A DNA stretch of 64,000 nucleotides from a phage, in sequence record PZ402305.1, one strand, 5' to 3'. The translations under genes and the position numbers were made by a program. Shown here in pieces: positions 2,077 through 64,000 of this stretch. The first letter of the stretch is position 1; the number at the start of each line of letters is the position of its first letter. The notes below the pieces were generated by a model. It was not told the origin of the DNA. It saw nothing but the letters and a program-made list of their open reading frames with translations, and did not search any database.

Positions 2077-2079
2077 TTG

Positions 2080-2108: not shown

Positions 2109-2177
2109 AACTAGATAGGTGAGGTTGTATATAATACAGCCTTGCCTTAACGATTTTATACCTGACTGGAGGAACAA

Positions 2178-11377: not shown

Positions 11378-11383
11378 TAAATA

Positions 11384-11404
11384 AAGGGCAGAAATGCCCT
11401 TTTT
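11384..11404 (+). terminator. Rho-independent terminator after tube gene
   Basis: aagggca-gaaa-tgccctt stem-loop followed by tttt. Confidence 0.65.
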
Positions 11405-35396: not shown

Positions 35397-35400
35397 CAGA

Positions 35401-35425
35401 AGCCCCGAAAGGGGCTTTCTTTTTA
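35401..35425 (+). terminator. Rho-independent terminator
   Basis: agcccc-gaaa-ggggct stem-loop followed by ttcttttt. Confidence 0.7.
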
Positions 35426-44668: not shown

Positions 44669-46445
44669 AATAGTTGCTATCCGTAGGCAAATTAGCAGGA
44701 TTGTTGAAATACTGCTCTTTGTCATGCAGAGTTGCAGTTCTAATGTCATAGTAAAACTGCCCTGCCGGACCAGTTTCCGAGAACTCACGGTTTTTTAGGA
44801 TAAAGCAATGAGTCGTATTGCGTTCTACAGGGTCTTCAGCGGCTTTATCTCGTTCCAAAGCCAAGGTAATACCAGCACCTTTAGCCAAGAAACTACTACC
44901 CATTGCATCGTCCTCTGTTAAGTGTTCATTGCCACCATTAGCCGACTTCTTAACGTGTGAGATGACGATAATGGTTATAGCATACTCTTTCATGATGCGC
45001 TTCAACCATGTTGCTAACTCTTCCTGGGCTTGAACATCCATACCAGAAAGCAAATCAGAATAAGGGTCGATAACAAGAATTGTTACTCCAAAATAGATGA
45101 TCATCTCCAAAACTTTTTCTTTGATAGACTCCACATCTGCTCCACGATCATCACACACATAAAAACGTGGTGATCCATCTTCTCTTTCGTAAAAATCTAG
45201 GATTTTTTCTTTATTCTCTTCCAAGATTTGAAATTTCTCTTCCGGTGTTTTCCTGTGTAGAGGAATATGCAGGAACGAGGACAACAGGTTACGAGAATAT
45301 TTCTTATAAGTTGCTTCCAAGGACAGAATACCTAGGGTATGTTCTGGGTGTGCAACAATAATATGTTTGGTGATCTCATTCACCATCAAAGTTTTACCGA
45401 TACTGGTCTTTGCCAGGATGACTGTAATCTCTTCCTCTACTAAACCACCACCCAGCATATTTGCAGCAACACGCATAAAAGGAGGCAAGGTAATCATCTT
45501 GGATTCCAAGCATTCTAATGCAGCTTCATACAAGACATTAGAAGCATAAACACCTGCTGGGGTGTATAGACGAGCACTCCAAAAAGCTTTTACGAAATCT
45601 TTTGCACGACCTTCTTCCAGATACTGATTGGCATCCTTAAGATCCATCTGCATACGGTAGACTTTGTTACGAGGCAGCACCTTAACAATATTTTCAAATG
45701 CCTCATTACCTGCTTTGTCATTATCCATGCAAACAATAATCTTCTTAAATTTTTCAAAGAAAGGATATTGTGCCTGAACTTGTTTATACATACTGGTTTC
45801 ACCAGTTGTGCCACTAACTACTGCTGGAAGTTCATATTTGTTGTCCAAGTTTTCAGACAGCATTTGATAAGCTGCCAGAGCATCGTGTTCACCACCTGTA
45901 ATTACCACAGTATGAGAACGGTCTGCAAAACGAATTTGTCCAAAAAGATCTACATCTTTACCTACTTGACCAATAGGTTTGCTGAAATCTTTAGGATGAA
46001 TACGACGCTTAAAACCAACCAACTCTTTACCGATAGTAGTTGGATATAAACAACTTTCTACTACCATCTGATCCCCTTCCTGACGGTATTCATAACGAAC
46101 ACCATAGAAAGATGAAACTTTTTCTTTAATGCCTCGATAACCACGTGGGTTGGTTGATGTTTCTTGAACAATTTTACGATGAATCTGTTTATTAAATTCC
46201 GAACCCACAATCTCCTCCTCTTCTTCTAAAACTTCACCATTTTCTCGTAACCATTCTACGCTAGGAATAGTGTATTCACACGCAAAGCACTTAGCACCCT
46301 TATGCTCTCCATTAGAATCTAATCCATAAACCATCAGGTTATTACGAGAGCGATCCTTGCCATTTTTCATGCAGCGCGGACAACCTGTATGCCCTTCCTT
46401 GCTAAGATCAACATCAAATCCATATTTAGTTATAATGTGCGACAC
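44667..46445 (-). CDS. Bifunctional DNA primase-helicase (T7 gp4-like)
   Basis: 592-aa ORF; N-terminal zinc ribbon (CPRC ... CFAC), TOPRIM-like acidic motifs (GGEHD, CMDNDKAG), C-terminal DnaB-type Walker A (AKTSIGKT) and Walker B (ILVIDP). Confidence 0.85.
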   Translation of the reverse strand: MSHIITKYGFDVDLSKEGHTGCPRCMKNGKDRSRNNLMVYGLDSNGEHKGAKCFACEYTIPSVEWLRENGEVLEEEEEIVGSEFNKQIHRKIVQETSTNPRGYRGIKEKVSSFYGVRYEYRQEGDQMVVESCLYPTTIGKELVGFKRRIHPKDFSKPIGQVGKDVDLFGQIRFADRSHTVVITGGEHDALAAYQMLSENLDNKYELPAVVSGTTGETSMYKQVQAQYPFFEKFKKIIVCMDNDKAGNEAFENIVKVLPRNKVYRMQMDLKDANQYLEEGRAKDFVKAFWSARLYTPAGVYASNVLYEAALECLESKMITLPPFMRVAANMLGGGLVEEEITVILAKTSIGKTLMVNEITKHIIVAHPEHTLGILSLEATYKKYSRNLLSSFLHIPLHRKTPEEKFQILEENKEKILDFYEREDGSPRFYVCDDRGADVESIKEKVLEMIIYFGVTILVIDPYSDLLSGMDVQAQEELATWLKRIMKEYAITIIVISHVKKSANGGNEHLTEDDAMGSSFLAKGAGITLALERDKAAEDPVERNTTHCFILKNREFSETGPAGQFYYDIRTATLHDKEQYFNNPANLPTDSNY

Positions 46446-51135: not shown

Positions 51136-51164
51136 AGTATAACACGATAGAGGCTTTATTGCAA
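51136..51164 (-). promoter_or_regulatory. Sigma70-like promoter (TTGCAA-N17-TATACT, TG-extended) for the hydrolase gene
   Basis: -35 at 51159-51164 and -10 at 51136-51141 on minus strand; about 25-nt leader with RBS. Confidence 0.55.
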
Positions 51165-51184
51165 GAGGGGGATTTCTCCCCCTC
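51165..51184 (-). terminator. Terminator-like hairpin after TerD gene
   Basis: Minus-strand gaggggg-agaaau-cccccuc stem-loop 20 nt after the TerD stop; U-tract weak. Confidence 0.4.
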
Positions 51185-51820: not shown

Positions 51821-52090
51821 TTATTTAAGTGTAATACCAGTTACAGTCAATTCTACTTCCAAAAGCTTAGATGTGTTTTGGATTGATACTAATTGTGCAT
51901 GATGGTTTAGTTCTACAGCAGAATAATCATTTTCCCCATCATCTACTTTTAAATAAACAATAATTTCACTAAGGTCTAAACCATTTTCGTCAAATGCATT
52001 TTCATAGACGAAAGTATCTCCTACATCCAAATCTTTAATAGTAAGGCATCGTTTATTTACTTTTTGCTCATCAATTTCGAAGTTTAACAC
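51821..52090 (-). CDS. Small protein, paralog B of a duplicated ~90-aa family
   Basis: 89-aa ORF, GTG start with AGGAGG RBS; shares DLDVGxTF ... GLD ... TxTGITLK with 53112..53390. Confidence 0.55.
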   Translation of the reverse strand: MLNFEIDEQKVNKRCLTIKDLDVGDTFVYENAFDENGLDLSEIIVYLKVDDGENDYSAVELNHHAQLVSIQNTSKLLEVELTVTGITLK

Positions 52091-52319
52091 TTCTTCCTCC
52101 TAATGTTATCTCCGGTTTGTATATACGAAGAATTATAGCATTTTCATTTTCTTTGTCAACCCATTCTTCATAATCAGGCCATACATGAATCTCTACTCTA
52201 CTTACAATATCTTCCATTCGCACAGTCCCAATGAAATACTCTTTGAGACTGCGCATAATGAAAGCTTCTCTCTCACGCCAATAATTTTCTATGACTTGAG
52301 AGGCAAGCTCGTCGATCAT
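52071..52319 (-). CDS. Hypothetical small protein
   Basis: 82-aa ORF; start overlaps vWA stop (ATGA). Confidence 0.45.
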   Translation of the reverse strand: MIDELASQVIENYWREREAFIMRSLKEYFIGTVRMEDIVSRVEIHVWPDYEEWVDKENENAIILRIYKPEITLGGRSVKLRN

Positions 52320-53110
52320 TTTTTAGCACCTACTTTAACAACCCACTCTCCGAACTCTTCAGATAAGAGTTTGTCATAAAGCTCTGAATCTGTCAAGTCT
52401 AAATCTTTAATGCCAATAAAACCAACATTATCATAAGCATTTGCCAGTTCTTTCAGGAAGCCAAACTTCTCATTACCAACGCCAACCATGAACCAATAAA
52501 TAGGTTTATTCTTATTCTCTTCGATAAGACGACGAACAGCACTAGGATCACCATTCTCACCATCAGTCTGGAAGAATACAACACCAGGGGTAACGTCAGA
52601 ACCTGGTTCAGATACAGCTACAACTTTTTCACGCTCTACAGACACTGTTTCAGTTTTACCAAGCAGACGATTAAAGAAGCCTTTCTTTGGAGCCTCCTCT
52701 TGTACCACTTGTTTAGTGGTAATATATTTAGTAACAGTGCCAAAATACTCATCGTAGATATCCGCCATTACAGGGGCGTAATTTGTTCCACCTCCGATAC
52801 GAACATTACGCATACATTTACCAACATAGTCATCGTAAACATCTGCTGTTGCTGGAGTAAGCTCTTGGGAACTCGTATTGAAGGCCCACATATCAATTTG
52901 TTGATTATCGTCGAACAGCATACCAAAAGGAAGCAGTTTACCTACAAAATCACTCACTACCCCACTAGAATATAGACCATGCATACTACCAGAAATATCT
53001 AGAGCACATGCTACACGAAGAACAATCTTACCTTCATTCAGGTTCTTATTCTTTTTCAGAGAGAAAGCAAGGTTTTCTTGACGTTTTTTCAGGCTGATTT
53101 TCTCGGACAT
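52316..53110 (-). CDS. vWA-domain protein (TerY/TerF-like) with TerD-like N-terminal ISLKK motif
   Basis: 264-aa ORF; MIDAS motif DISGSM at start of a vWA-like domain; N-terminus MSEKISLKK mirrors the TerD N-terminus; AAGGAG RBS. Confidence 0.65.
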   Translation of the reverse strand: MSEKISLKKRQENLAFSLKKNKNLNEGKIVLRVACALDISGSMHGLYSSGVVSDFVGKLLPFGMLFDDNQQIDMWAFNTSSQELTPATADVYDDYVGKCMRNVRIGGGTNYAPVMADIYDEYFGTVTKYITTKQVVQEEAPKKGFFNRLLGKTETVSVEREKVVAVSEPGSDVTPGVVFFQTDGENGDPSAVRRLIEENKNKPIYWFMVGVGNEKFGFLKELANAYDNVGFIGIKDLDLTDSELYDKLLSEEFGEWVVKVGAKK

Positions 53111-53111
53111 A

Positions 53112-53390
53112 TTATTTCTCCTTCTTAAGTGTAATATTGGTAACTTCTAAATCTACTTCCACCATATTTGTATCTGGTGGGATGCAATGAGTATAGCCTC
53201 GTTGTGCTAGTGATCCATTAATACAGATCGCACTGTTTGTGGAATTTTTAATGAACACCAAGTTACGGTAGGTATCCAACCCTGCGTCTTCATAGGCATC
53301 ATAATACATGAATGTGGCCCCTACGTCAAGATCTTCGAAAGCAATAGGTAAATCCTGACTTTTTTCTTCTTGAATATTGAATCTAAACAC
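53112..53390 (-). CDS. Small protein, paralog A of duplicated family (start revised to internal GTG)
   Basis: Internal GTG at 53390 has a GAGGAGG RBS and aligns with the start of paralog B; track start 53456 lacks an RBS. Confidence 0.5.
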   Translation of the reverse strand: MFRFNIQEEKSQDLPIAFEDLDVGATFMYYDAYEDAGLDTYRNLVFIKNSTNSAICINGSLAQRGYTHCIPPDTNMVEVDLEVTNITLKKEK

Positions 53391-53946
53391 GCATACCTCC
53401 TCTACCAATTTTGAAGCCCAAATCGTAAGCTTCCTTAGTGATCTTTTGTAACTCACTTATAGGAAGTGTTACAAGAGGATCATCTTCTTCAATTTCCATC
53501 TTGTCATCTTCTGTTTCAATGAGAGTATTATGCACTTTGTGATAAGGGTTGTCAACACGTTTAAACTTATTCTTTTCTGTGCTGAAAAAACAATCTGGAT
53601 CTTCTTCACCATCACCCCAACCTTGGTTAGGATCTCCGTCAGATTGTTCTGTAGGGATTTCACCTGTAAAGTACTCTTCCAGCACCATAGCGATACCGTC
53701 CCTTGGATTTGAGGAATGCATCAAATCACAAACCTTACTCCAATCCATAGCCCATTCGAACCGTTCACGAACGCCGTTTTCATCCTCCTTTCCAGAGAAA
53801 ACACAACCATAACTATCATAGTTGCCATACATCTCTTCAATAACAACACCGTCCTTCAAAAGAAAGAGATAACAAGGCGATCCGTCGAAAGAAGTAGAAA
53901 GGGCAGCTTTGCCCGATTCTTTGCACAAAAAGCTAAAACAACCCAT
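53383..53946 (-). CDS. Hypothetical acidic protein
   Basis: 187-aa ORF within the Ter-like block; start overlaps upstream stop. Confidence 0.5.
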   Translation of the reverse strand: MGCFSFLCKESGKAALSTSFDGSPCYLFLLKDGVVIEEMYGNYDSYGCVFSGKEDENGVRERFEWAMDWSKVCDLMHSSNPRDGIAMVLEEYFTGEIPTEQSDGDPNQGWGDGEEDPDCFFSTEKNKFKRVDNPYHKVHNTLIETEDDKMEIEEDDPLVTLPISELQKITKEAYDLGFKIGRGGMRV

Positions 53947-54149
53947 TACAAACCCTCCTTCAGATTATCAAGAGCTACAGTGGTTTCACAAAAGTCTCCA
54001 TAAGTTTTATGATGTTCCAGAAAAGCTTCGGGTCCACCCCAGTCATTATCTTGTGTATTCCAGCCATCAATAAAAGCATCTTCAATGATTGTGATCAGTT
54101 CTTGTCGGGTTAACTGGATAATATTAGGATCGTTATCGTAGTTAAACAT
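53946..54149 (-). CDS. Hypothetical small protein
   Basis: 67-aa ORF; ATG overlaps the stop of the upstream micro-ORF. Confidence 0.45.
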   Translation of the reverse strand: MFNYDNDPNIIQLTRQELITIIEDAFIDGWNTQDNDWGGPEAFLEHHKTYGDFCETTVALDNLKEGL

Positions 54150-54315
54150 CCTCTTCCTCCTCTAAAATATGGAACCCGTAATTACAATAGTCCTGAAAGG
54201 TTTCGTGCGCAAGATCTTCTATATCCTCTTGAGACATATCATCTTCAATTTCGATATCCACAACCTCATTGCATCCACACCAAGCAGTTTCAATATTCAC
54301 TCGTAATATTTTCAT
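54142..54315 (-). CDS. Hypothetical small acidic protein (57 aa; shorter than the ORF track's 60-aa cut-off)
   Basis: ATG overlaps upstream stop (TAATG) and follows a GAGGAGGAG RBS; its stop overlaps the next start. Confidence 0.4.
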   Translation of the reverse strand: MKILRVNIETAWCGCNEVVDIEIEDDMSQEDIEDLAHETFQDYCNYGFHILEEEEDV

Positions 54316-54509
54316 TACTCCTCCTCATTGAAGTCAATATCTGCAAGGAGTTCGAATTTACGGAAGTTACGACAACCTTCATAAATATAACAATCACGAC
54401 AAACTGCTAGAACACTTGGGGGATATATGCCTCCCATCGGTGCGAATCGTTTTTCGTCATCATAACGGACACCAATGTCTTCATCAATTATATAGATACG
54501 GATTCTCAT
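54315..54509 (-). CDS. Hypothetical small protein
   Basis: 64-aa ORF; start overlaps TelA-like stop. Confidence 0.45.
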   Translation of the reverse strand: MRIRIYIIDEDIGVRYDDEKRFAPMGGIYPPSVLAVCRDCYIYEGCRNFRKFELLADIDFNEEE

Positions 54510-55618
54510 TTACCAAGCCCTCGTTTCACAGCAGCTACCATCCCGTCTTCCAGAGATTGAACTTCATTAATATAATCAACACGAGCAGCACGGGCTTCCG
54601 TATTGATGCGGTTAGTTTCTTCCAGCATCTTAACCAAGTTTTCCTGATCGTGACGCAGAGTTTCAATATCCAACACTTGACGGTTAGCCAGTGCTGCTGC
54701 TTCGATCTGATTCTGTGTGGCAAGATCGCTACCCAGTTTAATTGCCAGGTTAAATTCATCAAGAACGTTATTCTGCGTCTCTGCTGCTTTCATTTGACGT
54801 AAGCTCTCGATATACATTGAGAAGTTAGCAGAGTAAGCAGGAATAACATTATTTACTATGTTACGCGCAGATCGCATTAAGCTTGCAGAAACTTTTTGCA
54901 TACCTTGTACACGCGGTCCCATTTGGACACACAGTAGGCGCAATGCTTTTAAATCTGCAATACGAATCTCCAGAAGATCCAAAGTATCTCGGATCACTTG
55001 TCGCTGTTCTACTGCATCTTCTGGAAGAGCAGCCAAAGCTTGTTCTTCTTTTTCATAGGTTGCTGTTAGAAGCTGCATATCTCGGTTCAAACTTGCAGCA
55101 TATTGTCCAATAGCTTGATGTAGCTTTTCAAGATATACCAAGGAATCTTCTTCTTTGCGAATATCCATTTGAAGGTTCTTTACCAACTCTTCAATACGGT
55201 TATTAACATTATCAAACTCCCCAAACAGGTCTTCTTTCATACCCATAACTTTTTTAATGAGTTTAGTAATACCCTTGCTTTGTTTAATAGAGTTTGGATC
55301 AAGTTGTTTTGCCTGTTTAATCAAAGCTGTGAGTCGTTCACTCATCTGATCGCCTTGATTACTACGTTGATGTTTTAATACCTCGGCATTCAAGGAACGC
55401 AAGGTTGTTCCTGCCTCTGCCCCAATCTCTTCGATCTCTTGTCGGGTCATAGAAGGCAAAACTGGAACTTCTTGCGGTGCCGCTGGTGCATAAACAGGAC
55501 TGGCATCTAACACGCTTGGAGCGAATACAGATTTACTTGCATCTGTTGTTGCAGCAAATACGCTCATTTCAGGCTTCTTCTGACCACCAGTAGCTGCTTT
55601 TAAAAATGGACTTGTCAT
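54506..55618 (-). CDS. TelA-like (toxic anion resistance / KlaB-like) protein, putative
   Basis: 370-aa largely alpha-helical, Gln/Leu/Glu-rich ORF of TelA-typical size, between TerD/vWA and TerC genes; call rests mainly on context. Confidence 0.4.
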   Translation of the reverse strand: MTSPFLKAATGGQKKPEMSVFAATTDASKSVFAPSVLDASPVYAPAAPQEVPVLPSMTRQEIEEIGAEAGTTLRSLNAEVLKHQRSNQGDQMSERLTALIKQAKQLDPNSIKQSKGITKLIKKVMGMKEDLFGEFDNVNNRIEELVKNLQMDIRKEEDSLVYLEKLHQAIGQYAASLNRDMQLLTATYEKEEQALAALPEDAVEQRQVIRDTLDLLEIRIADLKALRLLCVQMGPRVQGMQKVSASLMRSARNIVNNVIPAYSANFSMYIESLRQMKAAETQNNVLDEFNLAIKLGSDLATQNQIEAAALANRQVLDIETLRHDQENLVKMLEETNRINTEARAARVDYINEVQSLEDGMVAAVKRGLGK

Positions 55619-56205
55619 TCTTCATTCTCCTCTTCTGCATCTCTTATATATGGTGAAACACCGTACTCTTTAGCTACTTTAACCCAATCGTCCCATTTAT
55701 ACAACCATAATTTTCCTTCGGTCCCTTCTTTATCTGATTTCAACCACATATTAGGTTGCTTACCTGGGTACATGCGATTAGGTTTACGATTATAACCTCT
55801 AACACATCTTGTCGCAAACCTATCTACCAGAACAAGAACATATTTATACTCGTGGTTCAACGGCTCTTTGGAAGTGGCTTTAGGATTAGCCCCTAATTCT
55901 GCTGCCAGTTTTTGCCAATGAGCACCGTGCCTACTAAACTTACCCATACAACCATCAATAGCATGAGCAATTTCGTGCTTCATTGTATCCACGATCATAT
56001 CTCTTGTGGAGTTCTTATGCAAGTGCCAATTTACAACAACAATTTTATCTCGGTAGTTGCACCAACCGAAAGAGTTATTCACTTTGTTTCTAACACAAGC
56101 TTTATATCCTGCTTCACGTAACATGTTGTAGTAAACAGGAAAATCTTCTTTTATTTCCTGCATCACTTCCCACCACAAGAGTTGCAAGTCTCTCTCGGTA
56201 TGCAT
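55615..56205 (-). CDS. SprT-like zinc metallopeptidase (putative)
   Basis: 196-aa ORF with HEIAH (HExxH) zinc-binding motif and a downstream His. Confidence 0.45.
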   Translation of the reverse strand: MHTERDLQLLWWEVMQEIKEDFPVYYNMLREAGYKACVRNKVNNSFGWCNYRDKIVVVNWHLHKNSTRDMIVDTMKHEIAHAIDGCMGKFSRHGAHWQKLAAELGANPKATSKEPLNHEYKYVLVLVDRFATRCVRGYNRKPNRMYPGKQPNMWLKSDKEGTEGKLWLYKWDDWVKVAKEYGVSPYIRDAEEENEE

Positions 56206-56208
56206 AAC

Positions 56209-56802
56209 TTACACCTTAAAAGTGAAATGCGTGGTCGTGGCTTCAAAATCAGGACCAGATAAACGTGCACTGAAATCTGAAATATTTGTAATTAAAAAGC
56301 TTTTATGCATACCTAACACAGCCACGCTTTCAATATCTTCTACTAACATTTCAATCATGTTAGAAACATGGCTGAACGTAGAGTTTTGTTTTTTGATGGT
56401 GTAGAAAGAAAGATTCCCACCTGCTGTATAAGATACCTCTTCAAAATCTTTAATCGTATATTGTGTGCCATCAGTAAAGAAAATGGTAGCTTTATTCGTA
56501 GCACGTTTCTTGTTTTTTGGTCCTTTTTTACGTTTACTGCGAGTAGGCAAACCGTTTGGGAACACCATAGCTACAAATTCTTCAGCAGAAACCTCCTTAC
56601 CGAAATCATAACCATAAGAGACAGCATCTATAAACTCGTCATCTTCATTTTTAAAATAATGGAAATAGGGCCAATTTGAAAGATTATCAAGCATCTTATG
56701 CTCGTCCACAGCAGAGAATGTATCCCTCAAAGCGCGTGTGATTTGCAAAGCATTAGGCAACCTTTTAACACCTACGATGGAAGTACGAATAGAAATTGTC
56801 AT
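56209..56802 (-). CDS. Hypothetical protein
   Basis: 197-aa ORF with AAGGAG RBS; Lys-rich central segment. Confidence 0.5.
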   Translation of the reverse strand: MTISIRTSIVGVKRLPNALQITRALRDTFSAVDEHKMLDNLSNWPYFHYFKNEDDEFIDAVSYGYDFGKEVSAEEFVAMVFPNGLPTRSKRKKGPKNKKRATNKATIFFTDGTQYTIKDFEEVSYTAGGNLSFYTIKKQNSTFSHVSNMIEMLVEDIESVAVLGMHKSFLITNISDFSARLSGPDFEATTTHFTFKV

Positions 56803-56816
56803 TGTTTTTCTCCTTA

Positions 56817-57254
56817 TTAACGTCGCTTGCTACGAGATGAACTCTTTTTACTTAAAGGGCTATTGTAAGATTTACGAGTTGTATAGCTACTATTTGTTTT
56901 AAAAGTTTGTCTCGGCTTTTCATAAGTTTTTATCTCTGGCTTAGGCTTACCATAAAAATTAGTTTTCGGTTTAGGTGTGTTATAATGTTTATTAATAATC
57001 GTTCTGTTATCGTTATAATCCCCGCTGCTACGATTACTACCGCCACTCATCATATGCCCTAACAACATACCTGTAGCAAACTCACCAACACCGCTACTAC
57101 TAGAACCGCCACCATTGTTGATAATAGTTGTATCTCCGTCAGATCCTTGTTGAGCGTATTGTTGAGGAGGTTGTTGGTATTGTGCAGGATTTGTTTCATC
57201 CTCGCAAGCTGTTAAAAAGATACAGCCAATTAAAATCAGGGCTAGTTTTTTCAT
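56817..57254 (-). CDS. Lipoprotein (start revised to ATG 57254)
   Basis: Signal peptide MKKLALILIGCIFLTAC with lipobox LTAC; internal ATG has GAGGA RBS; mature part Gln/Pro/Gly/Ser-rich. Confidence 0.5.
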   Translation of the reverse strand: MKKLALILIGCIFLTACEDETNPAQYQQPPQQYAQQGSDGDTTIINNGGGSSSSGVGEFATGMLLGHMMSGGSNRSSGDYNDNRTIINKHYNTPKPKTNFYGKPKPEIKTYEKPRQTFKTNSSYTTRKSYNSPLSKKSSSRSKRR

Positions 57255-57441
57255 ATTTGCTTTCCTCATTTTGACTATTAATACATCTGTGTTTGAAATC
57301 TCCAGAGAAGCAATAAAGTTGCTCTCCATCTCGGTATAAACTCACTTTACTGCCGTTGATTACGCTTGTCAATACAAAAATTACAACAAACAACCCTATT
57401 GCAAAACAAATATTTTCAAACACAATCAACAAGTATTTCAT
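57196..57441 (-). CDS. Small membrane protein (uncertain)
   Basis: 81-aa ORF with N-terminal hydrophobic helix; ATGA coupling to upstream gene; 3' end overlaps the lipoprotein start. Confidence 0.3.
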   Translation of the reverse strand: MKYLLIVFENICFAIGLFVVIFVLTSVINGSKVSLYRDGEQLYCFSGDFKHRCINSQNEESKYEKTSPDFNWLYLFNSLRG

Positions 57442-57788
57442 TTTAAAAATACCTCATCATCAGTTTCATTATCCCAGAAGAACAAATCCCAACCATTCGG
57501 ATCATTCCATTTGGCTGCTGGAGAAGTCCATATTTGTTCGATATCAATATTCAAAACTTCACCGTTTCGTTTTGAAACAGCTTTAGTTAATTCCCAACGA
57601 GATACAGGCTCTACTTCCCCTGAACCACTCCCACAACAAGCTACCACGTTAGGAGGCAAATTAATTGGATCTTTGGTCACGATCATAACGCTTACCCCAG
57701 GGTAAACTTTTGAAAGATAATCTAAAACGTAATCCACATCACCAGATAAATCCCAAACAAGTTCTTGAATTTCATCAAAATTATTCAT
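57438..57788 (-). CDS. Hypothetical acidic protein
   Basis: 116-aa ORF with AGGAGAG RBS just after the TerC terminator. Confidence 0.5.
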   Translation of the reverse strand: MNNFDEIQELVWDLSGDVDYVLDYLSKVYPGVSVMIVTKDPINLPPNVVACCGSGSGEVEPVSRWELTKAVSKRNGEVLNIDIEQIWTSPAAKWNDPNGWDLFFWDNETDDEVFLK

Positions 57789-57799
57789 AAGTCTCTCCT

Positions 57800-57824
57800 A
57801 TAAAATAGCCTCCCGAAGGAGGCT
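57800..57824 (-). terminator. Rho-independent terminator after TerC gene
   Basis: Minus-strand agccucc-uucg-ggaggcu stem-loop followed by AUUUUAU. Confidence 0.6.
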
Positions 57825-57830
57825 CATCTA

Positions 57831-58805
57831 TTAAACAGCAGCTTCTTCTTTTTCAGGGAAGATAAAGCTTGCAATAACACCAAGAGCTAATGTGCCTAGA
57901 ACAATCATCAGACTTACGTTAGGGGAAATATCATGCGGGAGGAATGACCACTTGGCATGAAGTGTTTCACCGAACGGGTGATACATAAGTTTAGCACCGA
58001 CAAATACCAGAACCACAGCAACAGCTTTCTCTAAGTGAACCAGATATTTCACAGCCACACTTAACACAAAGAAAAGTGCACGTAAACCAAGAACAGCCAT
58101 CAGCATTGCAGAATAAACTAGCAGAGGTTCTTGTGTCACACCGATCACAGCCGGAACTGAATCAAAAGAGAAGACAATATCTGTAAGCTCAATAACAAAC
58201 ACACAAAGAAGAGCAGGAGTTGCATATTTAATACCATTCTTAATGGTGATGAACTTTTCACCATCCAGTGCATTGTGCACAGGCAGAACTTTACCTACTA
58301 AACGAACAGCCCAATGCTTAGAGTAATCAATATCCTCTTCTTCGTCACCACCTTTGATGATAGCCACGGCAGACCAAGCTACAATCAAACCGAACAACAC
58401 TTGGACCGACCAATGAAGGTTAAACAAAGCGGTCCCTGCTGCAACAAAAATACCTCGGAAGACAATGGCTCCTGCAATTCCCCAAAGTAAAATCTTATGT
58501 TGGAGATGTGTGCTCTTAATTCCAAAGCTTGCAAAAATTGCCATGAACACCATCAGGTTATCTACAGAAAGACTCTTTTCCAACACATAGCCACTTAGGA
58601 AAAGCGCGGCAAACTCTTTACCATGTTCTACCCAAATGAATGCGTAATATCCTAAAGCTAAAGCAATCCAAAAAACAGACCAAAGCAAAGCAGATTTAAT
58701 TCCAATTTCTTTATTCTCTTTATGACCAAAGAAATCAATACCAATAGACAATGCTAAAATACCAACTAAAACAACTACATCAATAATGGGGAAACCAAGT
58801 TGCAT
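57831..58805 (-). CDS. terC: TerC-family integral membrane protein
   Basis: 324-aa ORF with multiple TM helices and the TerC-family signature EKSLSVDN. Confidence 0.75.
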   Translation of the reverse strand: MQLGFPIIDVVVLVGILALSIGIDFFGHKENKEIGIKSALLWSVFWIALALGYYAFIWVEHGKEFAALFLSGYVLEKSLSVDNLMVFMAIFASFGIKSTHLQHKILLWGIAGAIVFRGIFVAAGTALFNLHWSVQVLFGLIVAWSAVAIIKGGDEEEDIDYSKHWAVRLVGKVLPVHNALDGEKFITIKNGIKYATPALLCVFVIELTDIVFSFDSVPAVIGVTQEPLLVYSAMLMAVLGLRALFFVLSVAVKYLVHLEKAVAVVLVFVGAKLMYHPFGETLHAKWSFLPHDISPNVSLMIVLGTLALGVIASFIFPEKEEAAV

Positions 58806-58824
58806 TATTTTCTCCTTTCTCTTT

Positions 58825-58843
58825 GCGGGGAACCACTCCCCGC
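58825..58843 (-). promoter_or_regulatory. 5' leader stem-loop upstream of TerC start
   Basis: gcgggga-guggu-uccccgc hairpin between predicted -10 and the AAGGAG RBS. Confidence 0.3.
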
Positions 58844-58855
58844 CTCATGTGATAC

Positions 58856-58883
58856 ATCTTACTCTATTCTAAAACTTTGTCAA
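58856..58883 (-). promoter_or_regulatory. Sigma70-like promoter (TTGACA-N16-TAAGAT) dedicated to TerC
   Basis: -35 at 58878-58883 and -10 at 58856-58861 on minus strand, 50-nt leader to ATG at 58805. Confidence 0.5.
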
Positions 58884-58886
58884 CAC

Positions 58887-59108
58887 TTATTTTGAAGAAC
58901 TTGAGGAAAAGATCCCACGTAGTACAGCCATGATAAATGCCACACACACCACAGTCCAGAAGGTGACAGGAACAGTGATATCTGTGTGACCCATCATTTC
59001 AACAACGTAGTTATAAGCCAGCAGCAGAAGCCATGCTGGAATCATACTAATCAGAAAAGCAATAACAAACACAATAATCACTGCAAGAATACCTGCTAAA
59101 ACGTCCAT
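58887..59108 (-). CDS. Small membrane protein (two TM helices)
   Basis: 73-aa hydrophobic ORF (MDVLAGILAVIIVFVIAFLISMIPAWLLLLAY...). Confidence 0.5.
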   Translation of the reverse strand: MDVLAGILAVIIVFVIAFLISMIPAWLLLLAYNYVVEMMGHTDITVPVTFWTVVCVAFIMAVLRGIFSSSSSK

Positions 59109-59121
59109 AATATTTCTCCTC

Positions 59122-59595
59122 TTAAAGTTTATAAATAGTCACATCGTGACCTGTTTTTACTAAAGTTTCTTCAATCATCACTTCAATGATAGCCCAATTA
59201 CCTCCTGCCAACCCTGCTCCAATCATAGGTAAGCCGATCTTACATTTTTGGTCACGGAGAAGCAAATCGTTAGCCATAGCTATTAGTGCATCGTAAAGTG
59301 CATCATAGTCCAACTGACGACCTTTAGCATTGTATCCGTAACGGTATTGCCCGTATAGATTATATACCAAAGGGTCTGATTGTTCGTCTGGCACCCCTAA
59401 ACTAAAACAACCTAGTTTACTTTGATCACCAGCCATTGTGTCTAAGTCTGCTGCATATGCGTAAGGAAATGCTTGTTTGATTTGTGGGGCAATACCTGCC
59501 CCCATATTACACATACAGTTGCAACAATGAGCAATAACAGTTACTTCACCTGCTTTAGCGGCATCAATAAGATTACCTGTTTTCATTTTAAGCAT
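59122..59595 (-). CDS. Macro-domain protein (ADP-ribose binding/processing, putative; start revised to ATG 59595)
   Basis: Macro-like motifs VIAHCCNCMCNMGAGIA and GLPMIGAGLAGGNW; ATG at 59595 has AAGGAG RBS just after the PRTase stop. Confidence 0.45.
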   Translation of the reverse strand: MLKMKTGNLIDAAKAGEVTVIAHCCNCMCNMGAGIAPQIKQAFPYAYAADLDTMAGDQSKLGCFSLGVPDEQSDPLVYNLYGQYRYGYNAKGRQLDYDALYDALIAMANDLLLRDQKCKIGLPMIGAGLAGGNWAIIEVMIEETLVKTGHDVTIYKL

Positions 59596-59608
59596 TTTTA
59601 GCTCCTTA

Positions 59609-60436
59609 TTACAGAATGTGTTGTTTTGTGTAACGATCCAAGAATTCAAAGTTTTCAGCATACTTTGAAATTCGGTTGTAACCTTCTCCCAAGCATCCAA
59701 AGAAAAGTTGCTCTACATAGTAATGTGGCAATTGGCTAAGAATGATTTTGAAGTCTTCATGATTTTGGCCCATAAGATACTTAATAGGACGAACAAGACA
59801 CTGTGCATCACGTTCTTCATTAATCATTTTAACAAACGCTTCTGGTGTATTAATGTAGTTAAAATTCAGTTTAGCTTCGGTATCTGCTTGATTACCTTCA
59901 TATTTTGCAAAATACAGGAAGTAAACATCATTTTTAACTTGATTTTCATTAAGGATCTCAATCAGTTTGTCTTCATGCGTTCCAGTGATATTTACATCAT
60001 CAATGAATACAAGCTTCTTATCACCCCAGAATTCTTTGTTACAGTAGAATGTATCCCCATCAATAAGTTTCTTACGACTAGCTTTATCCAAGAAACCATA
60101 ATCGTTGATATAGCTAACTTTACGATGAATAATGTCCAGTTCTGCTGAACGACCTTGATCATATTGTGCTTGCAACATATTAAAGTAATTAATAAAATGA
60201 TCTGTCATCATTGTTGCAGCATTATGCACATGGTTGTAAGGAGAAGGAATGATAACAAATTGTTCCCCAATATGTTTCATTGCCACTTGAGCAAAAAACT
60301 GAAGTGCCAATTCTTTACCCATACGACGCGCAGCTTGGTTACTACCAAATTTCAATTTTGAATAATCTTGGATATCAAAAGTAGCAGTTTCCAGGTCATC
60401 AAATTTATTTGCAAAAATTTGAGTTTGATTACGCAT
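59609..60436 (-). CDS. Phosphoribosyltransferase (type I PRTase fold) domain protein
   Basis: 275-aa ORF with PRPP-binding signature KKLVFIDDVNITGTHEDKL. Confidence 0.55.
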   Translation of the reverse strand: MRNQTQIFANKFDDLETATFDIQDYSKLKFGSNQAARRMGKELALQFFAQVAMKHIGEQFVIIPSPYNHVHNAATMMTDHFINYFNMLQAQYDQGRSAELDIIHRKVSYINDYGFLDKASRKKLIDGDTFYCNKEFWGDKKLVFIDDVNITGTHEDKLIEILNENQVKNDVYFLYFAKYEGNQADTEAKLNFNYINTPEAFVKMINEERDAQCLVRPIKYLMGQNHEDFKIILSQLPHYYVEQLFFGCLGEGYNRISKYAENFEFLDRYTKQHIL

Positions 60437-61085
60437 TTACAATTTCTCCTCTTTTAAGTTTCTCTAGTAAGTCGTTAGGGTTCTTAATATGACAGAAGTT
60501 AAACCCTAAGTCAACACATTTTCCATCATATTCTTCACTATCGCCTACGTGCAACACTTCGTGCCCTAACAGAGGGATCGGAGAATACGTGAGCGTGCGA
60601 GCAAAGAATCGCGGATCTGGTTTACAAAGTAAAGCTTCATCCGAGAAATGGGTGAACTCAAAACAATTCCAACTATCAAACTTACAAGCACGACGCAGAA
60701 TATCCCCTGATATGAAGTTGGTATTGCTCTTAATACTCAAATCATAACGCCCAGAAAGATACAGCAAGTACATCGGCAGATCTACGGCTACGTGTGGTGG
60801 AAACTTAAGAAACCACTGTTCACACTCGAAACGAAGCTTTGCAGACTTCCAAGGCGTTATCCCAAGTTCAGAACCAAGTCTTTCCCAGGCGTATGCTGCA
60901 CACTCGGCTTTGCCTTGAAGTGCTGCATTATCCAGTTCCTTTTTGATCTTTTTATAAGCTGCTCTTGCTTCAACTTCCGTAATATCTCCATATTTTGCGA
61001 TAGTCCAGGCTCGCATGTCTGCGTAATTGGAGTTTGCTGTGATCAGTGTGTTCCATACATCAAAAGAGATATGTTTAATAGTCAT
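60429..61085 (-). CDS. HAD-superfamily hydrolase (phosphatase-like)
   Basis: 218-aa ORF with HAD motif I-like FDVWNTL, motif III-like KPDPRFF and motif IV-like VGDSEEYD. Confidence 0.55.
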   Translation of the reverse strand: MTIKHISFDVWNTLITANSNYADMRAWTIAKYGDITEVEARAAYKKIKKELDNAALQGKAECAAYAWERLGSELGITPWKSAKLRFECEQWFLKFPPHVAVDLPMYLLYLSGRYDLSIKSNTNFISGDILRRACKFDSWNCFEFTHFSDEALLCKPDPRFFARTLTYSPIPLLGHEVLHVGDSEEYDGKCVDLGFNFCHIKNPNDLLEKLKRGEIVNA

Positions 61086-61912: not shown

Positions 61913-62383
61913 TTAATCTGATTGCCAACCACTTGCCGTTTTGGTCCATAATCTTTGATTATCTGACCCTCTGAAAGGTTTTGTAGTTGGATTGTTTATT
62001 TCATACTTTCCGTCTACAATAATGTCAACAAGATTTTTAATATACAAAGGCACTTCCTCAAAAGTATATCCTGTATACACCATTATATCTTTGCTTGACC
62101 CATAAACATCTCTAACCTTTTCTATAAGGTTTTTAACATTGTAAATATTCTGCGGATCTAATGGCTCTCCTCCTAAAATTGTTAAACCTTTTACAAACGG
62201 TCTTGACAAATCTTTTAAAACTTGCTCTACATTTTCGTGAGTAAACGGTTTCCCATAAGAATAAGACCAGGCTTTTTGGTTAAAACAGCCACGACAACCG
62301 TGGCTACAACCACTAACCCAGAGTGAGCACCTAACTCCCTCGCCATTAATAAGATCTACAGGTTCATATCCTGCAAAATTCAA
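61913..62383 (-). CDS. nrdG: Anaerobic ribonucleotide reductase activating protein (radical SAM)
   Basis: 156-aa ORF with CxxxCxxC radical-SAM cluster motif (CSHGCRGC); ATGA-coupled to nrdD. Confidence 0.8.
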   Translation of the reverse strand: MNFAGYEPVDLINGEGVRCSLWVSGCSHGCRGCFNQKAWSYSYGKPFTHENVEQVLKDLSRPFVKGLTILGGEPLDPQNIYNVKNLIEKVRDVYGSSKDIMVYTGYTFEEVPLYIKNLVDIIVDGKYEINNPTTKPFRGSDNQRLWTKTASGWQSD

Positions 62384-64000
62384 AGATGTTTCTCCCTTTG
62401 CAAAACTTCCTGCATTTTACCTTTGTTGTAAGGGCGTGAATTAGGGGCAGAAAGATACCCTGACACACGTCTAACTACAGAAATAGTTTCTTCTTCATGG
62501 TTGCCACAATCAGGACACTCAAACCCTTTAGCCGTTGCCTTAAATTCTCCATGAAAACCACACTTAAAGCATTGATCCACGGGCTGATTAATACCAAAAT
62601 AGTGAATATGTTCATAAGCGTAGTCTACTAAAGTCTCCAAAGCTTCTAAGTTATTCTTTAAGTTTGGTGTTTCGACATAACTTATGTTACCACCATTACT
62701 AATCTGTGCAAAACCTGCTTCATAATCCCATTTTTCAAAAGGATTTGTTACCAGCCATACAGGTTGATGAAAAGAGTTAGTAAGATAGTCTCTTTCTACC
62801 AAACCTGGGTATTTTTCATTTAAAGCTGTTGCAAACTTATAGCACAAGGATTCTGCTGGAGTTCCATAGAGACTAAACGCCAGCTTAGATCGTTCTTTAA
62901 ACACAGCACACACATCTTTCATATGTTGCAGAATGCTTTTACCAAGTTCCTTTTTATCTTTTTCTTCTGGATAAAGGATTTCCAAAGCTTCGGCAAGACC
63001 TACATAACCAATACTAATAGAAGCATAACCACCTTCAAACAAAACACCAATTTCATCATTGGCATTTAAACGCGCTAAAGCCCCTTCCATGAAAAGAATA
63101 GGGTTTTCAGATGCTTTGGTATGTCTGATACGGTTTACACGTAGCATGTGAGCATCATAGGCTATCTCCATATGTTTATTAAGAAGATCGGTGAAAGATT
63201 CTCCTTTACTTCTCGCTTCCGCAGCGATCAGAGGTAAGTTGATAGAAACTACTCCAAGGTTGAATCGTCCATCGTATTTTTCTCCTTGTTCGGTGGCATA
63301 GTACGACAAAAAGGAACGACAACCCATACTCGTAACAGTACCATCTGCTGATCCCGTAACTTCTTTGTTCAAAGGAACAGAAATAAAATCTGGATAAATA
63401 CGATCAGCACAACATGCCAAAGCTTGTTGCTTAAGATCATAGTTAGGATCACTAGGTTTCATGTTAACACCTTCTTGTAAAAAGAAAATAACTTTAGGGA
63501 ATACAGGCGTTACATGATCTTTGCCTAGACCGTTACTATGCACTTTAAGATAGTTGGCTGTGATCATTCTGCCAAAAACAGAGGTATCCAGACCCATACT
63601 GATTGTAATAAAAGGAGATTGTCCATTAACACTCATTAAAGTATTAACCTGATACAAGAGAGTTTGCATAGCATCGTATACATCTTGTTCGGTCATTTCT
63701 AGGGCTTCTTTCCTTGCATAACAACCGTAGCGACGTTTGGTTATCTCCATGTTTTTAAGGAAACTAGCTTCAACATAAGGACTAAGACCTTTATCAATGT
63801 GCGCACACGTCTGACCTCCATACTGACTGGAGGCAACAGCTTGGATGATTTGAGTTAGCACTGTGGTAGCTACTCCAATAGATTTTGGTTTTTCTATCTG
63901 TGCAGCACCGATCTTAAAACCATTTTCTAACATATCTTGATAATTAACAAGACAACAGTTTGTAAGAGGAGAGAGCAGATAATCCAAGTCGTGAATATGT
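62380..64000 (-). CDS. nrdD: Anaerobic ribonucleoside-triphosphate reductase, C-terminal part (N-terminus beyond window end)
   Basis: Reading frame stays open to position 64000; C-terminal glycyl-radical motif RVSGYL and zinc ribbon CFKCGF ... CPDCGN. Confidence 0.8.
   Translation of the reverse strand, partial: HIHDLDYLLSPLTNCCLVNYQDMLENGFKIGAAQIEKPKSIGVATTVLTQIIQAVASSQYGGQTCAHIDKGLSPYVEASFLKNMEITKRRYGCYARKEALEMTEQDVYDAMQTLLYQVNTLMSVNGQSPFITISMGLDTSVFGRMITANYLKVHSNGLGKDHVTPVFPKVIFFLQEGVNMKPSDPNYDLKQQALACCADRIYPDFISVPLNKEVTGSADGTVTSMGCRSFLSYYATEQGEKYDGRFNLGVVSINLPLIAAEARSKGESFTDLLNKHMEIAYDAHMLRVNRIRHTKASENPILFMEGALARLNANDEIGVLFEGGYASISIGYVGLAEALEILYPEEKDKKELGKSILQHMKDVCAVFKERSKLAFSLYGTPAESLCYKFATALNEKYPGLVERDYLTNSFHQPVWLVTNPFEKWDYEAGFAQISNGGNISYVETPNLKNNLEALETLVDYAYEHIHYFGINQPVDQCFKCGFHGEFKATAKGFECPDCGNHEEETISVVRRVSGYLSAPNSRPYNKGKMQEVLQREKHL

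Follow-up and report, generated by a model that had tools for sequence, protein, structure and literature searches.

The TerC gene of a phAPEC8-like coliphage is preceded by a copy of a repeated, putative early-promoter cassette

The stem-loop in the leader of the TerC gene described here is, judging from comparisons of related loci, the phage's standard early-gene start signal and not an element specific to TerC. The window, i.e. the whole stretch of 64,000 nucleotides that was analysed (PZ402305.1), is 99% identical to phAPEC8 and comes from a phAPEC8-like coliphage (Phapecoctavirus, Stephanstirmvirinae). An earlier note on this DNA had described TerC as an insulated single-gene unit with its own promoter, leader hairpin and terminator, and had raised the possibility that the structured leader is a regulatory element of the TerC/Alx type. 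The individual parts of the unit are all present, and we consider the promoter, the leader hairpin and the terminator each to be real because they are conserved among relatives across Stephanstirmvirinae; taken alone, none of them beats chance. The regulatory proposal does not hold, given that the same hairpin precedes many unrelated small genes and that the leader is too small. For the comparisons with relatives, a metagenome scan supplied useful diversity and a related-locus search of viral contigs gave four loci.

The TerC gene (57831-58805) encodes a TerC/Alx-family membrane protein of 324 aa (Pfam TerC, 3e-40; NCBIfam TIGR03718 'R_switched_Alx', 2.6e-95) with 33% identity to E. coli Alx. 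The gene, its promoter, the leader hairpin and the terminator are all on the minus strand, as are the other features given below. TerC is part of a long minus-strand cluster that holds a phage Ter module comprising HAD, PRTase_3, Macro, TerC, SprT-like, TelA and vWA-TerF genes. The Ter-like character of the neighbours, as claimed in the earlier note, is borne out by Pfam matches for PRTase_3 (4.5e-42), TelA (3.2e-33), vWA-TerF-like (1.6e-37) and, weakly, HAD (4e-4), while TerD and TerB have no Pfam match among the ORFs scanned in this stretch. In GAP52, BUCT695, PhiImVa-1 and Arno162, which belong to other phage families, TerC sits amid TerD/TerB genes and lacks the promoter cassette, and the cassette architecture is therefore a property of the lineage and not of the TerC gene. 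In one public annotation the gene is assigned to 'moron, auxiliary metabolic gene and host takeover'.

The promoter is intergenic, between the stop codon of the upstream gene (ending at 58887) and TerC, and reads TTGACA-N16-TAAGAT, matching the consensus at 10 of 12 positions. Its upstream part (58878-58893) consists of an A-tract and TGTTGACA, with the A-tract (58893-58890) overlapping the TAA stop of the upstream gene (58889-58887) and the -35 hexamer TTGACA at 58883-58878. The -10 hexamer TAAGAT (58856-58861) follows 16 nt past the -35 hexamer. All relatives examined have TTGACA or TTGACT at -35, and they retain a TAnnnT pattern at -10 with a spacing of 16-17 nt. The dedicated sigma70-like promoter proposed at 58856-58883 is thus found in place, with conserved hexamers and spacing and a spacer sequence that drifts. 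A scan of the window for such promoters gave 46 sites vs. 38 expected by chance. The sequence also fits the Certrevirus early-promoter consensus AAAA(N4)TGTTGAC(N17)TATAAT (PMC7344957). Between the -10 hexamer and the hairpin lies a conserved initial-transcribed motif, TATCACAT (58847-58854), which recurs in paralogous cassettes and has the form (T)A(T/C)CAC(A/G)T in the cassettes of phAPEC8, phi92-like phages, CR9 and LTH01. Transcription of TerC probably starts within this motif, at A58850 or A58848; a literature search found no transcriptome or start-site studies for Phapecoctavirus or phAPEC8.

The leader stem-loop, GCGGGGA-GUGGU-UCCCCGC (58825-58843), is the 7-bp GC hairpin that the earlier note had pointed out, and belongs to a GCGG…CCGC early-cassette family. 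It folds with about -13 to -14 kcal/mol, which is thermodynamically not unusual (z = -1.05), and because of this weak fold statistic we relied on covariation as evidence for the hairpin. Across 12 distinct TerC leaders the stem is paired in 84 of 84 cells, with five of the seven pairs changed on both sides, compared with 51-73% pairing in slid controls; RNAalifold predicts the same helix, and the hairpin is also recognised by the family model R2 described below. Pairing has therefore been held by compensatory changes. One G.U pair in the stem of one leader (L003) and a G.U outer pair in another (L020) fit a hairpin that forms as RNA from the sense strand. Among TerC orthologues the stem can be almost wholly replaced (GCGGGGA vs. 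AAGAGGGAG), with the loop remaining AUAG(U/G). Past the hairpin and an A/G-rich spacer comes a strong Shine-Dalgarno sequence, AAGGAG (58812-58817), 6 nt 5' of the ATG, in agreement with the strong RBS reported before, and its GGAG does not vary among the relatives in alignments A1 and A3. As for leader size, the leader is structured as claimed, but its transcribed length is about 44 nt, the previously given 50 nt having been counted up to the ATG from where the -10 hexamer ends. With the usual -10 spacing, the predicted 5' overhang before the stem is 5-7 nt for the window copy, 0-3 nt for Klebsiella-type TerC leaders and about 3-5 nt for early paralogues with a GGG extension.

Two other roles for the leader were considered and dropped. 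Sequestration of the Shine-Dalgarno sequence by the pyrimidine-rich 3' arm of the hairpin could involve no more than 3-5 bp and would be far weaker than the main stem, and the minimum free energy structure leaves the Shine-Dalgarno sequence free of the hairpin. A leader peptide of about 22 codons from the ATG at 58848, out of frame and overlapping the TerC start, is not conserved, and phi92-type leaders have ATAG in place of this ATG. In addition, the promoter and hairpin are wholly absent from one relative with 86% TerC identity (L022) that keeps the terminator, so that TerC as such can do without the cassette.

The general nature of the leader becomes apparent from its other copies. The cassette has the layout AAAA-N4-TGTTGACA-N16-TAAGAT-gTATCACAT, followed by the GCGG…CCGC hairpin, an A/G-rich spacer, a Shine-Dalgarno sequence and ATG. 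About 15 further copies are present in phAPEC8 at the genome ends (record positions 238-3,207 and 143,676-147,547), all of them before small early or hypothetical ORFs, with the TerC copy as the exception in lying in a replication/metabolism cluster. A TerC-type model (R1), which found no second copy in the window, had suggested a TerC-specific element, which was overturned by blastn and by the family model R2. In the window, R2 has the TerC hairpin as its single match (48.5 bits, E 2e-13); in the rest of phAPEC8 it has at least 12 matches with E<0.02, all in the early region and none at 30-64 kb. Likewise, blastn with the 88-nt promoter plus leader hits each genome in 2-5 places, and the sites in alia, VEcB, CR9 and LTH01 include some that precede unrelated genes. 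Phi92-like contigs carry at least four cassette copies each, and rV5-like phages also have the cassette. In a pattern scan of viral contigs, which returned many unrelated GC hairpins and terminators, only phi92-like and phAPEC8-like contigs were informative. From the -10 end to GCGG there are 12 nt in most copies, and from the hairpin to the ATG 18-25 nt. The stem plus loop measures 16-20 nt, and such variation among copies is easier to reconcile with an RNA stem than with a fixed operator in the DNA. The apical loop RUNGK (AUGG, UAG, GUGGU, AUAGG) and the GCGG/CCGC base are conserved among paralogue hairpins and the inner stem varies. The parts themselves are not new to public records: the promoter is annotated in phAPEC8 and in vB_EcoM_ASO2A, both near-identical phages, and the ASO2A record also has the leader hairpin and the TerC 3' hairpin, each labelled as a terminator (the former by WebGeSTer). 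The stem-loop of the cassette is annotated inconsistently, as 'PHIRE promoter' in phAPEC8 and as 'terminator' in ASO2A, and we found no discussion of the transcribed stem-loop in those genome papers of these phages that we read.

This repeated occurrence bears directly on the idea that the hairpin leader is a TerC/Alx-specific, yybP-ykoY-like sensor of Mn2+, Ca2+ or pH, which we consider very improbable. In its favour, the protein falls within an NCBIfam subfamily named for a riboswitch, and E. coli alx and mntP are both under Mn riboswitch control (PMC10197570, PMC12153347). The comparison with yybP-ykoY proposed in the earlier note gave no RF00080 match in the whole window at the Rfam gathering score, none in 57700-59000 at E<=10 and none in the TerC loci of 15 other phages. 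Of two positive controls, mntP was detected (41.6 bits over 97 nt) and E. coli alx, a genuine riboswitch, was missed, so that the sensitivity of the Rfam model is imperfect and our rejection rests on size and on the shared cassette. The Mn aptamer has two stacked legs and a 3- or 4-way junction and spans about 110 nt (PMC12153347). The phage leader offers a single 7-bp hairpin in about 44 nt, less than half the length of the 97-nt mntP match, and therefore has no room for an aptamer of some 100 nt. The same type of hairpin, moreover, precedes many genes that have nothing to do with TerC.

At the other end of the gene, an intrinsic-terminator-like element (57800-57824) starts 6 nt past the TerC TAA, at the place where a UUCG-loop terminator had been proposed. 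It consists of the hairpin AGCCUCC-UUCG-GGAGGCU (57824-57807), with a 7-bp stem of which five pairs are GC and a UUCG loop, and of the tail AUUUUAU (57806-57800). All relatives retain the hairpin, in most cases with C(UUCG)G as its loop, and its stem is preserved through compensatory changes (77 of 77 cells paired and three of the seven pairs doubly changed, with 39-70% pairing in slid controls). A scan for terminators in the window gave 12 vs. 8.4 expected by chance. Several relatives have a weaker tail, such as UUCUAC or UUGUUGAGG. The next gene, of 116 aa, has its Shine-Dalgarno sequence AGGAG at 57799-57795, 8 nt past the terminator stem, and its ATG at 57788-57786 (start region 57786-57799); among the relatives examined, the distance from the stem to this Shine-Dalgarno sequence is 2-16 nt. 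Since this leaves no room for a promoter, expression of the next gene would require read-through of the terminator, probably to a substantial degree. No terminator lies between the TerC unit and the genes upstream, and, together with the dependence of the next gene on read-through, this makes the unit incompletely insulated. The description of TerC as an insulated single-gene unit is therefore right in that the gene has its own promoter, leader and terminator and behaves as a discrete evolutionary module, but the unit is open to transcription from upstream and probably leaks downstream.

The modular behaviour is most evident in the coding sequence. As far as can be judged from alignments, an internal core of TerC (57886-58780) is a swapped recombination module and occurs as two allele types whose DNA differs by about 30%. 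Compared with the window, tuntematon has 266 mismatches in the 895 nt of the core and flanks that are about 96-100% identical, while in phiWec190 the promoter and leader show no difference (0/81) and the 895-nt core has 291 mismatches. The reverse case is a locus (L018) with the other leader type and a window-type core (12/895 mismatches). All four combinations of leader type and core type exist, and the breakpoint lies at 58805-58781, just past the cassette. The phAPEC8 cassette copy at 145,940 resembles a chimera in which two hairpin types are joined. On this correlative evidence, the cassette appears to mark recombination seams such as that of the TerC allele exchange.

Our preferred explanation, to which we give somewhat better than even chances as a whole, is an early-promoter cassette with a generic 5' stem-loop, a partial 3' terminator and ends that act as homology anchors, and with no ligand sensing. 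Host sigma70 RNA polymerase would fire the TerC promoter right after infection, and early firing would bring TerC expression forward, or raise it, relative to the neighbouring genes. The presence of a cassette copy before TerC makes the gene look separately boosted within the Ter module, and TerC is probably an immediate-early gene of this kind. For the hairpin we infer the generic role of a 5' stem-loop, namely to stabilise or insulate the mRNA: it would hinder RppH/RNase E from entering at the 5' end and keep the Shine-Dalgarno region from pairing with upstream sequence, in primary transcripts as well as in read-through transcripts that have been cleaved 5' of the hairpin. In a passage of PMC3997798 that cites Emory 1992 and Bouvet & Belasco 1992, 5' stem-loops are treated as established stabilisers in E. 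coli. At the 3' end, the C(UUCG)G hairpin with its modest U-tract would act as a partial terminator and 3' stabiliser, giving a TerC mRNA of about 1.05 kb and passing some polymerase on to the next gene. The conserved ends may serve as homology anchors across which the TerC core is swapped between phages, and sensing of a ligand would play no part in any of these steps. Two features do not sit easily with a stabiliser. A start at A58850 or A58848 leaves 5-7 unpaired 5' nucleotides, more than would be ideal, and the apical loop RUNGK and the GCGG/CCGC base are conserved beyond the need of a pure stabiliser. This conservation of loop and base among paralogues hints at sequence-specific recognition.

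Such recognition is at the heart of an alternative that we regard as possible though unlikely, in which a trans-acting factor, either a phage early/middle protein or a host RNA-binding protein, binds the hairpin and acts on all early transcripts at once, serving shut-off, stabilisation or a nut/put-like function; in the last case the polymerase would be modified to pass following terminators. The sites of phage lambda nut and HK022 put are located just downstream of early promoters. The phage hairpin is placed in the same way, and terminators that need read-through do lie downstream. The GCGG…CCGC base, the RUNGK loop and the upstream CACAUAGG are kept in about 16 paralogues from two subfamilies in which the inner stem and the flanks vary, and the stem swap between TerC orthologues with retention of the loop points in the same direction. 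On the other hand, neither a candidate protein nor a boxA-like partner motif was found, the loops do differ between copies, and loop identity could reflect inheritance via cassette duplication and gene conversion. We put forward only tentatively, as something we rather doubt, that the hairpin with its RUNGK apex and CACAUAGG 5' flank is a dedicated RNA tag carried by each early transcript that the host polymerase makes from phAPEC8-, phi92- and rV5-like phages. If it were, a phage or host protein would handle the early mRNAs as one class (for shut-off, stabilisation or anti-termination), and TerC would have been recruited into the early regulon by gaining the tag.

Less probable still is that the stem-loop is the terminator or attenuator half of a PeSL-type (promoter-early stem-loop) terminator-promoter, damping upstream transcripts and thereby providing true 5' insulation. 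T4-type PeSL stem-loops cut lacZ as strongly as rrnB T1 (PMC2839356), WebGeSTer, as mentioned, called the TerC leader hairpin in ASO2A a terminator, and in Arno162 the TerC Shine-Dalgarno sequence comes directly after a genuine terminator made up of a hairpin and T5. The phage hairpin, however, lies downstream of the likely start and would stop transcripts of the cassette itself just as well; the sequence after it, AAAGAGAAAGG here and UCACAACAG in paralogues, contains no U-tract, and neither ARNold nor TransTermHP called the hairpin. We find it quite improbable that the inverted repeat works instead as DNA, as an operator at which a dimeric repressor turns early promoters off. In favour of such an operator, every early promoter has a near-perfect palindrome with its centre at about +15 to +20, the sequence recurs within one genome, and symmetric half-site co-evolution would mimic covariation. 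Yet the GCGG-to-CCGC length ranges over 16-20 bp in one genome, leaving the half-site spacing unfixed, G.U (G.T) pairs and bulged variants are tolerated, and the phi92 TerC copy is unlike the copies found elsewhere in genomes of this kind.

The early-promoter cassette that we favour makes the outcome for TerC mostly a clarifying one: there is no metal riboswitch, and the result bears on the timing with which host membrane and metal physiology would be changed. More generally, a compact, highly stereotyped early expression cassette is common to phAPEC8-, phi92- and rV5-like phages, coliphages in wide therapeutic and biocontrol use, and it is a ready object for studies of early mRNA handling and for phage engineering. 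What is new is a PeSL-like cassette family in another phage lineage, a modest addition. PeSLs are known from the T4-type phages RB49/phi1, PST and nt-1 (Arbiol 2010, PMC2839356; Comeau 2014, PMC4122927), and we compare them by working principle only. Both are repeated intergenic modules in which an AT-rich tract precedes a strong sigma70-like early promoter, with a stem-loop with G-run and C-run and a 3' Shine-Dalgarno sequence plus ATG, and both are clustered before small early genes without known function. PeSLs are associated with recombination breakpoints and module swapping, and the present cassette may be so as well. The phages, however, are of unrelated lineages and the stem consensus is another one, and we claim no sequence similarity. 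In addition, the stem-loop of the cassette is fixed about 12 nt past the -10 hexamer, and hence transcribed, with a conserved GCGG…CCGC, whereas that of PeSLs varies in position around or upstream of the promoter and has been assigned a terminator role. The TerC copy also lies in a core replication/metabolism cluster and not in a hyperplastic region.

The locus shares features with several other known systems. Like the morons of lambdoid phages, TerC is a single accessory gene that lies between a sigma70 promoter of its own and a terminator hairpin and is co-directional with its cluster; unlike them, it is found in every Stephanstirmvirinae locus fetched and within a multi-gene Ter module, which does not imply recent insertion, and its terminator must leak for expression of the next gene. 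The 5' UTRs of ompA and papA and the T7 gene 10 leader likewise combine a GC-rich hairpin near the 5' end with an unstructured A-rich spacer and a strong Shine-Dalgarno sequence, but the predicted 5-7 nt overhang of the TerC copy is long in comparison. With the yybP-ykoY riboswitch only the downstream gene family (TerC/Alx) is held in common, the phage leader having neither a junction nor L1/L3 loops and measuring about 44 nt vs. roughly 110 nt or more. Finally, the clustering of PRTase_3, HAD, TerC, TelA and vWA-TerF-like genes matches accounts of phage Ter systems in some jumbo and other tailed phages (Anantharaman 2012; Iyer 2021, PMC7824862), from which the present module differs in having no TerD/TerB by Pfam and in the interleaved Macro domain and SprT-like genes.

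The 1.9 kb around TerC shares 99.1-99.8% identity with Escherichia phages phAPEC8 and vB_Ec-G1 and matches 73 phage records. This makes the window part of a Phapecoctavirus genome (Stephanstirmvirinae), equivalent to ~62.65-126.65 kb of the phAPEC8 record. The TerC ORF (58805-57831, minus strand; 324 aa) encodes a protein that matches Pfam TerC (3e-40) and NCBIfam TIGR03718 'R_switched_Alx' (2.6e-95) and shares 33% of its residues with E. coli Alx. It is enclosed by a phage Ter module (52316-61085, minus strand) that includes vWA-TerF-like (52316-53110; 1.6e-37), TelA (54506-55618; 3.2e-33), SprT-like (55615-56205), Macro-domain (59122-59700, with a weak DarG-like N-terminus), PRTase_3/ComF-like (59609-60436; 4.5e-42) and HAD hydrolase (60429-61085) genes, all on the minus strand. 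Just upstream of the module lie nrdG and nrdD (61913-63987); neither TerD nor TerB was detected within it. Phage Ter systems have been reviewed (PMC7824862).

On the minus strand, TerC is preceded by a -35 hexamer TTGACA (58883-58878), a 16-nt spacer, a -10 hexamer TAAGAT (58861-58856), the leader hairpin GCGGGGA-GUGGU-UCCCCGC (58843-58825) and a Shine-Dalgarno sequence (SD) AAGGAG (58817-58812) 6 nt 5' of the ATG, and is followed, 6 bases after the stop codon, by the terminator hairpin AGCCUCC-UUCG-GGAGGCU (57824-57807) and then AUUUUAU. The promoter, leader hairpin, strong ribosome-binding site and terminator reported in an earlier note are thus all present, with exact coordinates; its 7-bp GC stem-loop stands, while the transcribed leader is ~44 nt rather than the 50 nt it gave. 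As stated, that finding is ordinary and was already annotated in public records: phAPEC8 carries the TerC promoter as a 'host dependent promoter determined with MEME', and in ASO2A the promoter and the downstream terminator are annotated along with the leader hairpin, there called a 'terminator' by WebGeSTer. Taken singly, none of the promoter, leader fold and terminator exceeds chance (46 promoter sites vs. 38 expected, 12 terminator sites vs. 8.4 expected, leader fold z = -1.05). An AUG at the extreme start of the predicted transcript (58846-58848, minus strand) begins a 22-codon ORF, which runs into the TerC start in another frame and is not conserved in phi92-type leaders.

TerC loci drawn from GenBank phages, IMG/VR and metagenomes gave 12 distinct leader sequences, in which the -35 (TTGACA/TTGACT), the -10 (TAnnnT) and their 16-17 nt spacing are kept while the spacer sequence drifts. 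All 84 cells of the leader helix are paired, and in five of its seven pairs both partners have changed (among the variants are GCGGGGA/UCCCCGC, GCGGAGG/CCUCCGC, AAGAGGGAG/CUCCCUCUU and AAGGGAGAG/CUCUCCCUU); when the structure is slid by 1-3 columns as a control, just 51-73% of cells pair and 0-1 pairs covary. RNAalifold recovers the identical helix. The terminator stem is likewise fully paired (77 cells), with covariation at three of seven pairs, including one C-G to G-C transversion, and its C(UUCG)G loop is nearly always kept. Full pairing together with covariation indicates that both hairpins are real structures under selection. At one locus (L022) promoter and hairpin are both absent and the terminator is still kept.

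With the 88-nt promoter and leader as query, blastn matched Phapecoctavirus records at 2-5 sites per genome. Intergenic matches ahead of small, unrelated genes also came from Justusliebigvirus (alia, VEcB) and Vequintavirinae (CR9, LTH01), for example TTGACA-N16-TAAGAT-gTATCACATag-GGCGGGAAA-UGG-UUUCCCGCC-aaatcaaagaaagg…ATG. Scanning viral contigs for the pattern revealed two phi92-like contigs with at least four cassette copies apiece. phAPEC8 holds ~15 further copies at both genome ends (record positions 238-3,207 and 143,676-147,547), all on the plus strand and before small hypothetical ORFs, typically as TTGACA-N16-TAATAT-ttaccacGUAGG-GCGGCA-AUGG-UGCCGC-UCAcaacagaagagag…ATG; its authors labelled these hairpin 20-mers 'putative promoter determined with PHIRE'. 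R2, a covariance model of the GCGG…CCGC hairpin family made from 12 cassette copies, matched the window once, at the TerC leader (48.5 bits, E 2e-13; runner-up 12 bits). The remaining 84.7 kb of phAPEC8 gave at least 12 matches with E<0.02, all in the early region, and none fell between 30 and 64 kb of that genome. The TerC leader hairpin is thus a generic component of the early-promoter cassette, and TerC is the sole gene to carry it outside the early region. The TerC promoter agrees with the Certrevirus early-promoter consensus AAAA(N4)TGTTGAC(N17)TATAAT, described with a few copies near replication/nucleotide-metabolism genes in a paper that makes no mention of a hairpin (PMC7344957); for rV5, 33 sigma70-type promoters are listed in the genome paper (PMC3606486). 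The stereotyped hairpin-bearing family, common to phAPEC8-, phi92- and rV5-like phages, is apparently undescribed.

One early cassette (L106 18941-18960; phAPEC8 record 145,940-145,959) has a chimeric hairpin, GCGGCGGAAUGGUUUCCCGC, that joins a 5' arm of the GCGGCGGA type to a 3' arm of the UUUCCCGC type, as would result from recombination between two cassette subtypes inside the loop. Outside the early region, sigma70-like promoters at ~45,650-45,695 and 51,140-51,180 of phAPEC8 (minus strand; L108) are followed by hairpins of other sequence, such as GGGAGGA-GGUGAG-UCCUCCC, and promoter-proximal hairpins may be a feature of the phage in general.

The earlier note had also proposed a riboswitch-type regulatory leader and a comparison with yybP-ykoY RNAs by Rfam or covariance model. 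Rfam gave no match at gathering score in the entire window, and the yybP-ykoY Mn2+ riboswitch model RF00080 gave none at E<=10 in 57700-59000, nor any in 15 other phage TerC loci. In controls, RF00080 found the mntP element of E. coli (a 97-nt match at 41.6 bits, just below the gathering score of 45). Even with the cut-off at E<=10 it missed the experimentally established Mn/pH riboswitch of E. coli K-12 alx (L038 1750-2150), an element with a 3-way in place of a 4-way junction (PMC12153347). This sensitivity gap is relevant to negative calls, and the Rfam result alone is therefore not decisive. The riboswitch reading is rejected because the leader, ~44 nt with one 7-bp stem, is too small for a Mn aptamer of two stacked legs, ~110 nt ahead of any expression platform (PMC12153347), and because the same hairpin stands 5' of many unrelated genes. 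The TerC unit thus lies outside the yybP-ykoY family.

From the observed cassette architecture, conservation and family membership we infer the rest of the mechanism. Host sigma70 polymerase would start probably at A58850 or A58848. TerC would then be an immediate-early member of the Ter module (PRTase_3, HAD, TelA, vWA-TerF-like), and the hairpin would lie 5-7 nt from the mRNA 5' end. There it would slow RppH/RNase E-dependent decay and leave the A/G-rich SD region unpaired, following the 5' stem-loop stabiliser principle (Emory 1992; Bouvet & Belasco 1992, as cited in PMC3997798), and the 3' hairpin would terminate and shield a ~1.05-kb mRNA. A fixed DNA operator is disfavoured, since stem-plus-loop length ranges over 16-20 nt among cassette copies and G.U pairs occur, which favours an RNA structure. 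The unusual conservation of the RUNGK apex and GCGG/CCGC base, both among paralogues and across subfamilies, speaks against a pure stabiliser, and a trans-acting reader of the hairpin is a serious, if less probable, alternative. Lower again in probability is an attenuator like that proposed for promoter-early stem-loop (PeSL) cassettes in T4-type phages: the hairpin is transcribed from its own promoter and is not followed by a U-tract.

The description of TerC as an insulated unit holds only partly. No terminator-like site was found between TerC and the upstream 73-aa, Macro, PRTase_3, HAD and nrdDG genes, so upstream transcripts should enter TerC. Downstream, the next gene's SD AGGAG (57799-57795, minus strand) starts 8 nt 3' of the terminator stem (2-16 nt in relatives examined), a space too short for a promoter, so that this gene depends on read-through; terminator U-tails are mediocre in several relatives. 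A GC hairpin, a few bases and the SD of a co-directional gene also follow one another at 40723-40706 (minus), 35399-35418 (plus) and 11383-11402 (plus); this arrangement is the usual punctuation of the phage. Rather than as an isolated unit, TerC is more aptly seen as one that is boosted 5' and damped 3'; the earlier interpretation is thus partly supported, and the observation behind it is confirmed.

Elsewhere on the minus strand, ORF 52071-52319 contains a perfect consensus sigma70 promoter (52132-52159; TTGACA-N16-TATAAT, its -10 preceded by TG), a short way upstream of the GTG-start ORF 51821-52090. This promoter is absent from the annotation of the phAPEC8 stretch examined. A hairpin without U-tract at 51165-51184 (GAGGGGGA-GAAA-UCCCCCUC), labelled a terminator in ASO2A, is directly followed by promoter-like TTGCAA-N17-TATACT (51136-51164), a putative terminator-then-promoter composite (51136-51184) in reversed order relative to the TerC cassette.

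Between the window and phage tuntematon both flanks are ~96-100% identical, whereas the TerC core (58780-57886) is 30% divergent (266/895); the last 55 nt of TerC (2/55 mismatches) and the terminator region (1/42) are conserved. phiWec190 has an identical promoter and leader (0/81) with a divergent core (291/895), and in a metagenomic contig (L018) the other leader type (13/81) goes with a window-type core (12/895). Two core alleles ~30% apart in DNA thus occur among otherwise near-identical phages (loci L004, L006, L018), and from these pairings all four combinations of leader and core type exist. Breakpoints at ~58805-58781 and 57885-57831 adjoin the regulatory elements, and the core alleles appear to have been reassorted with the two leader types. 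The added value of this analysis is to assign the leader hairpin to an early-cassette family, with TerC as both its lone outlier and a swapped module.

Unrelated phage families likewise have a GC hairpin just before the TerC SD: in Arno162 (L017 ~1110-1167) GGGGAGG-UUAACA-CCUCCCC is followed by U5 and is a real terminator, and PhiImVa-1 (L016 ~1150-1194) has UAGGGGA-GUAA-UCCCCUA. These may be chance occurrences, or the start of TerC may commonly require buffering. The TerC unit fits a 'moron' layout, and the closest analogue of its cassette is PeSL (PMC2839356, PMC4122927). Both have a repeated early promoter, a G/C stem-loop and an SD/ATG end, are enriched before small early genes and show a link to modular shuffling, which for the phAPEC8-type cassette is correlative. 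The phAPEC8-type cassette differs in that it belongs to another phage lineage and that its stem has a fixed, transcribed position and a conserved sequence.
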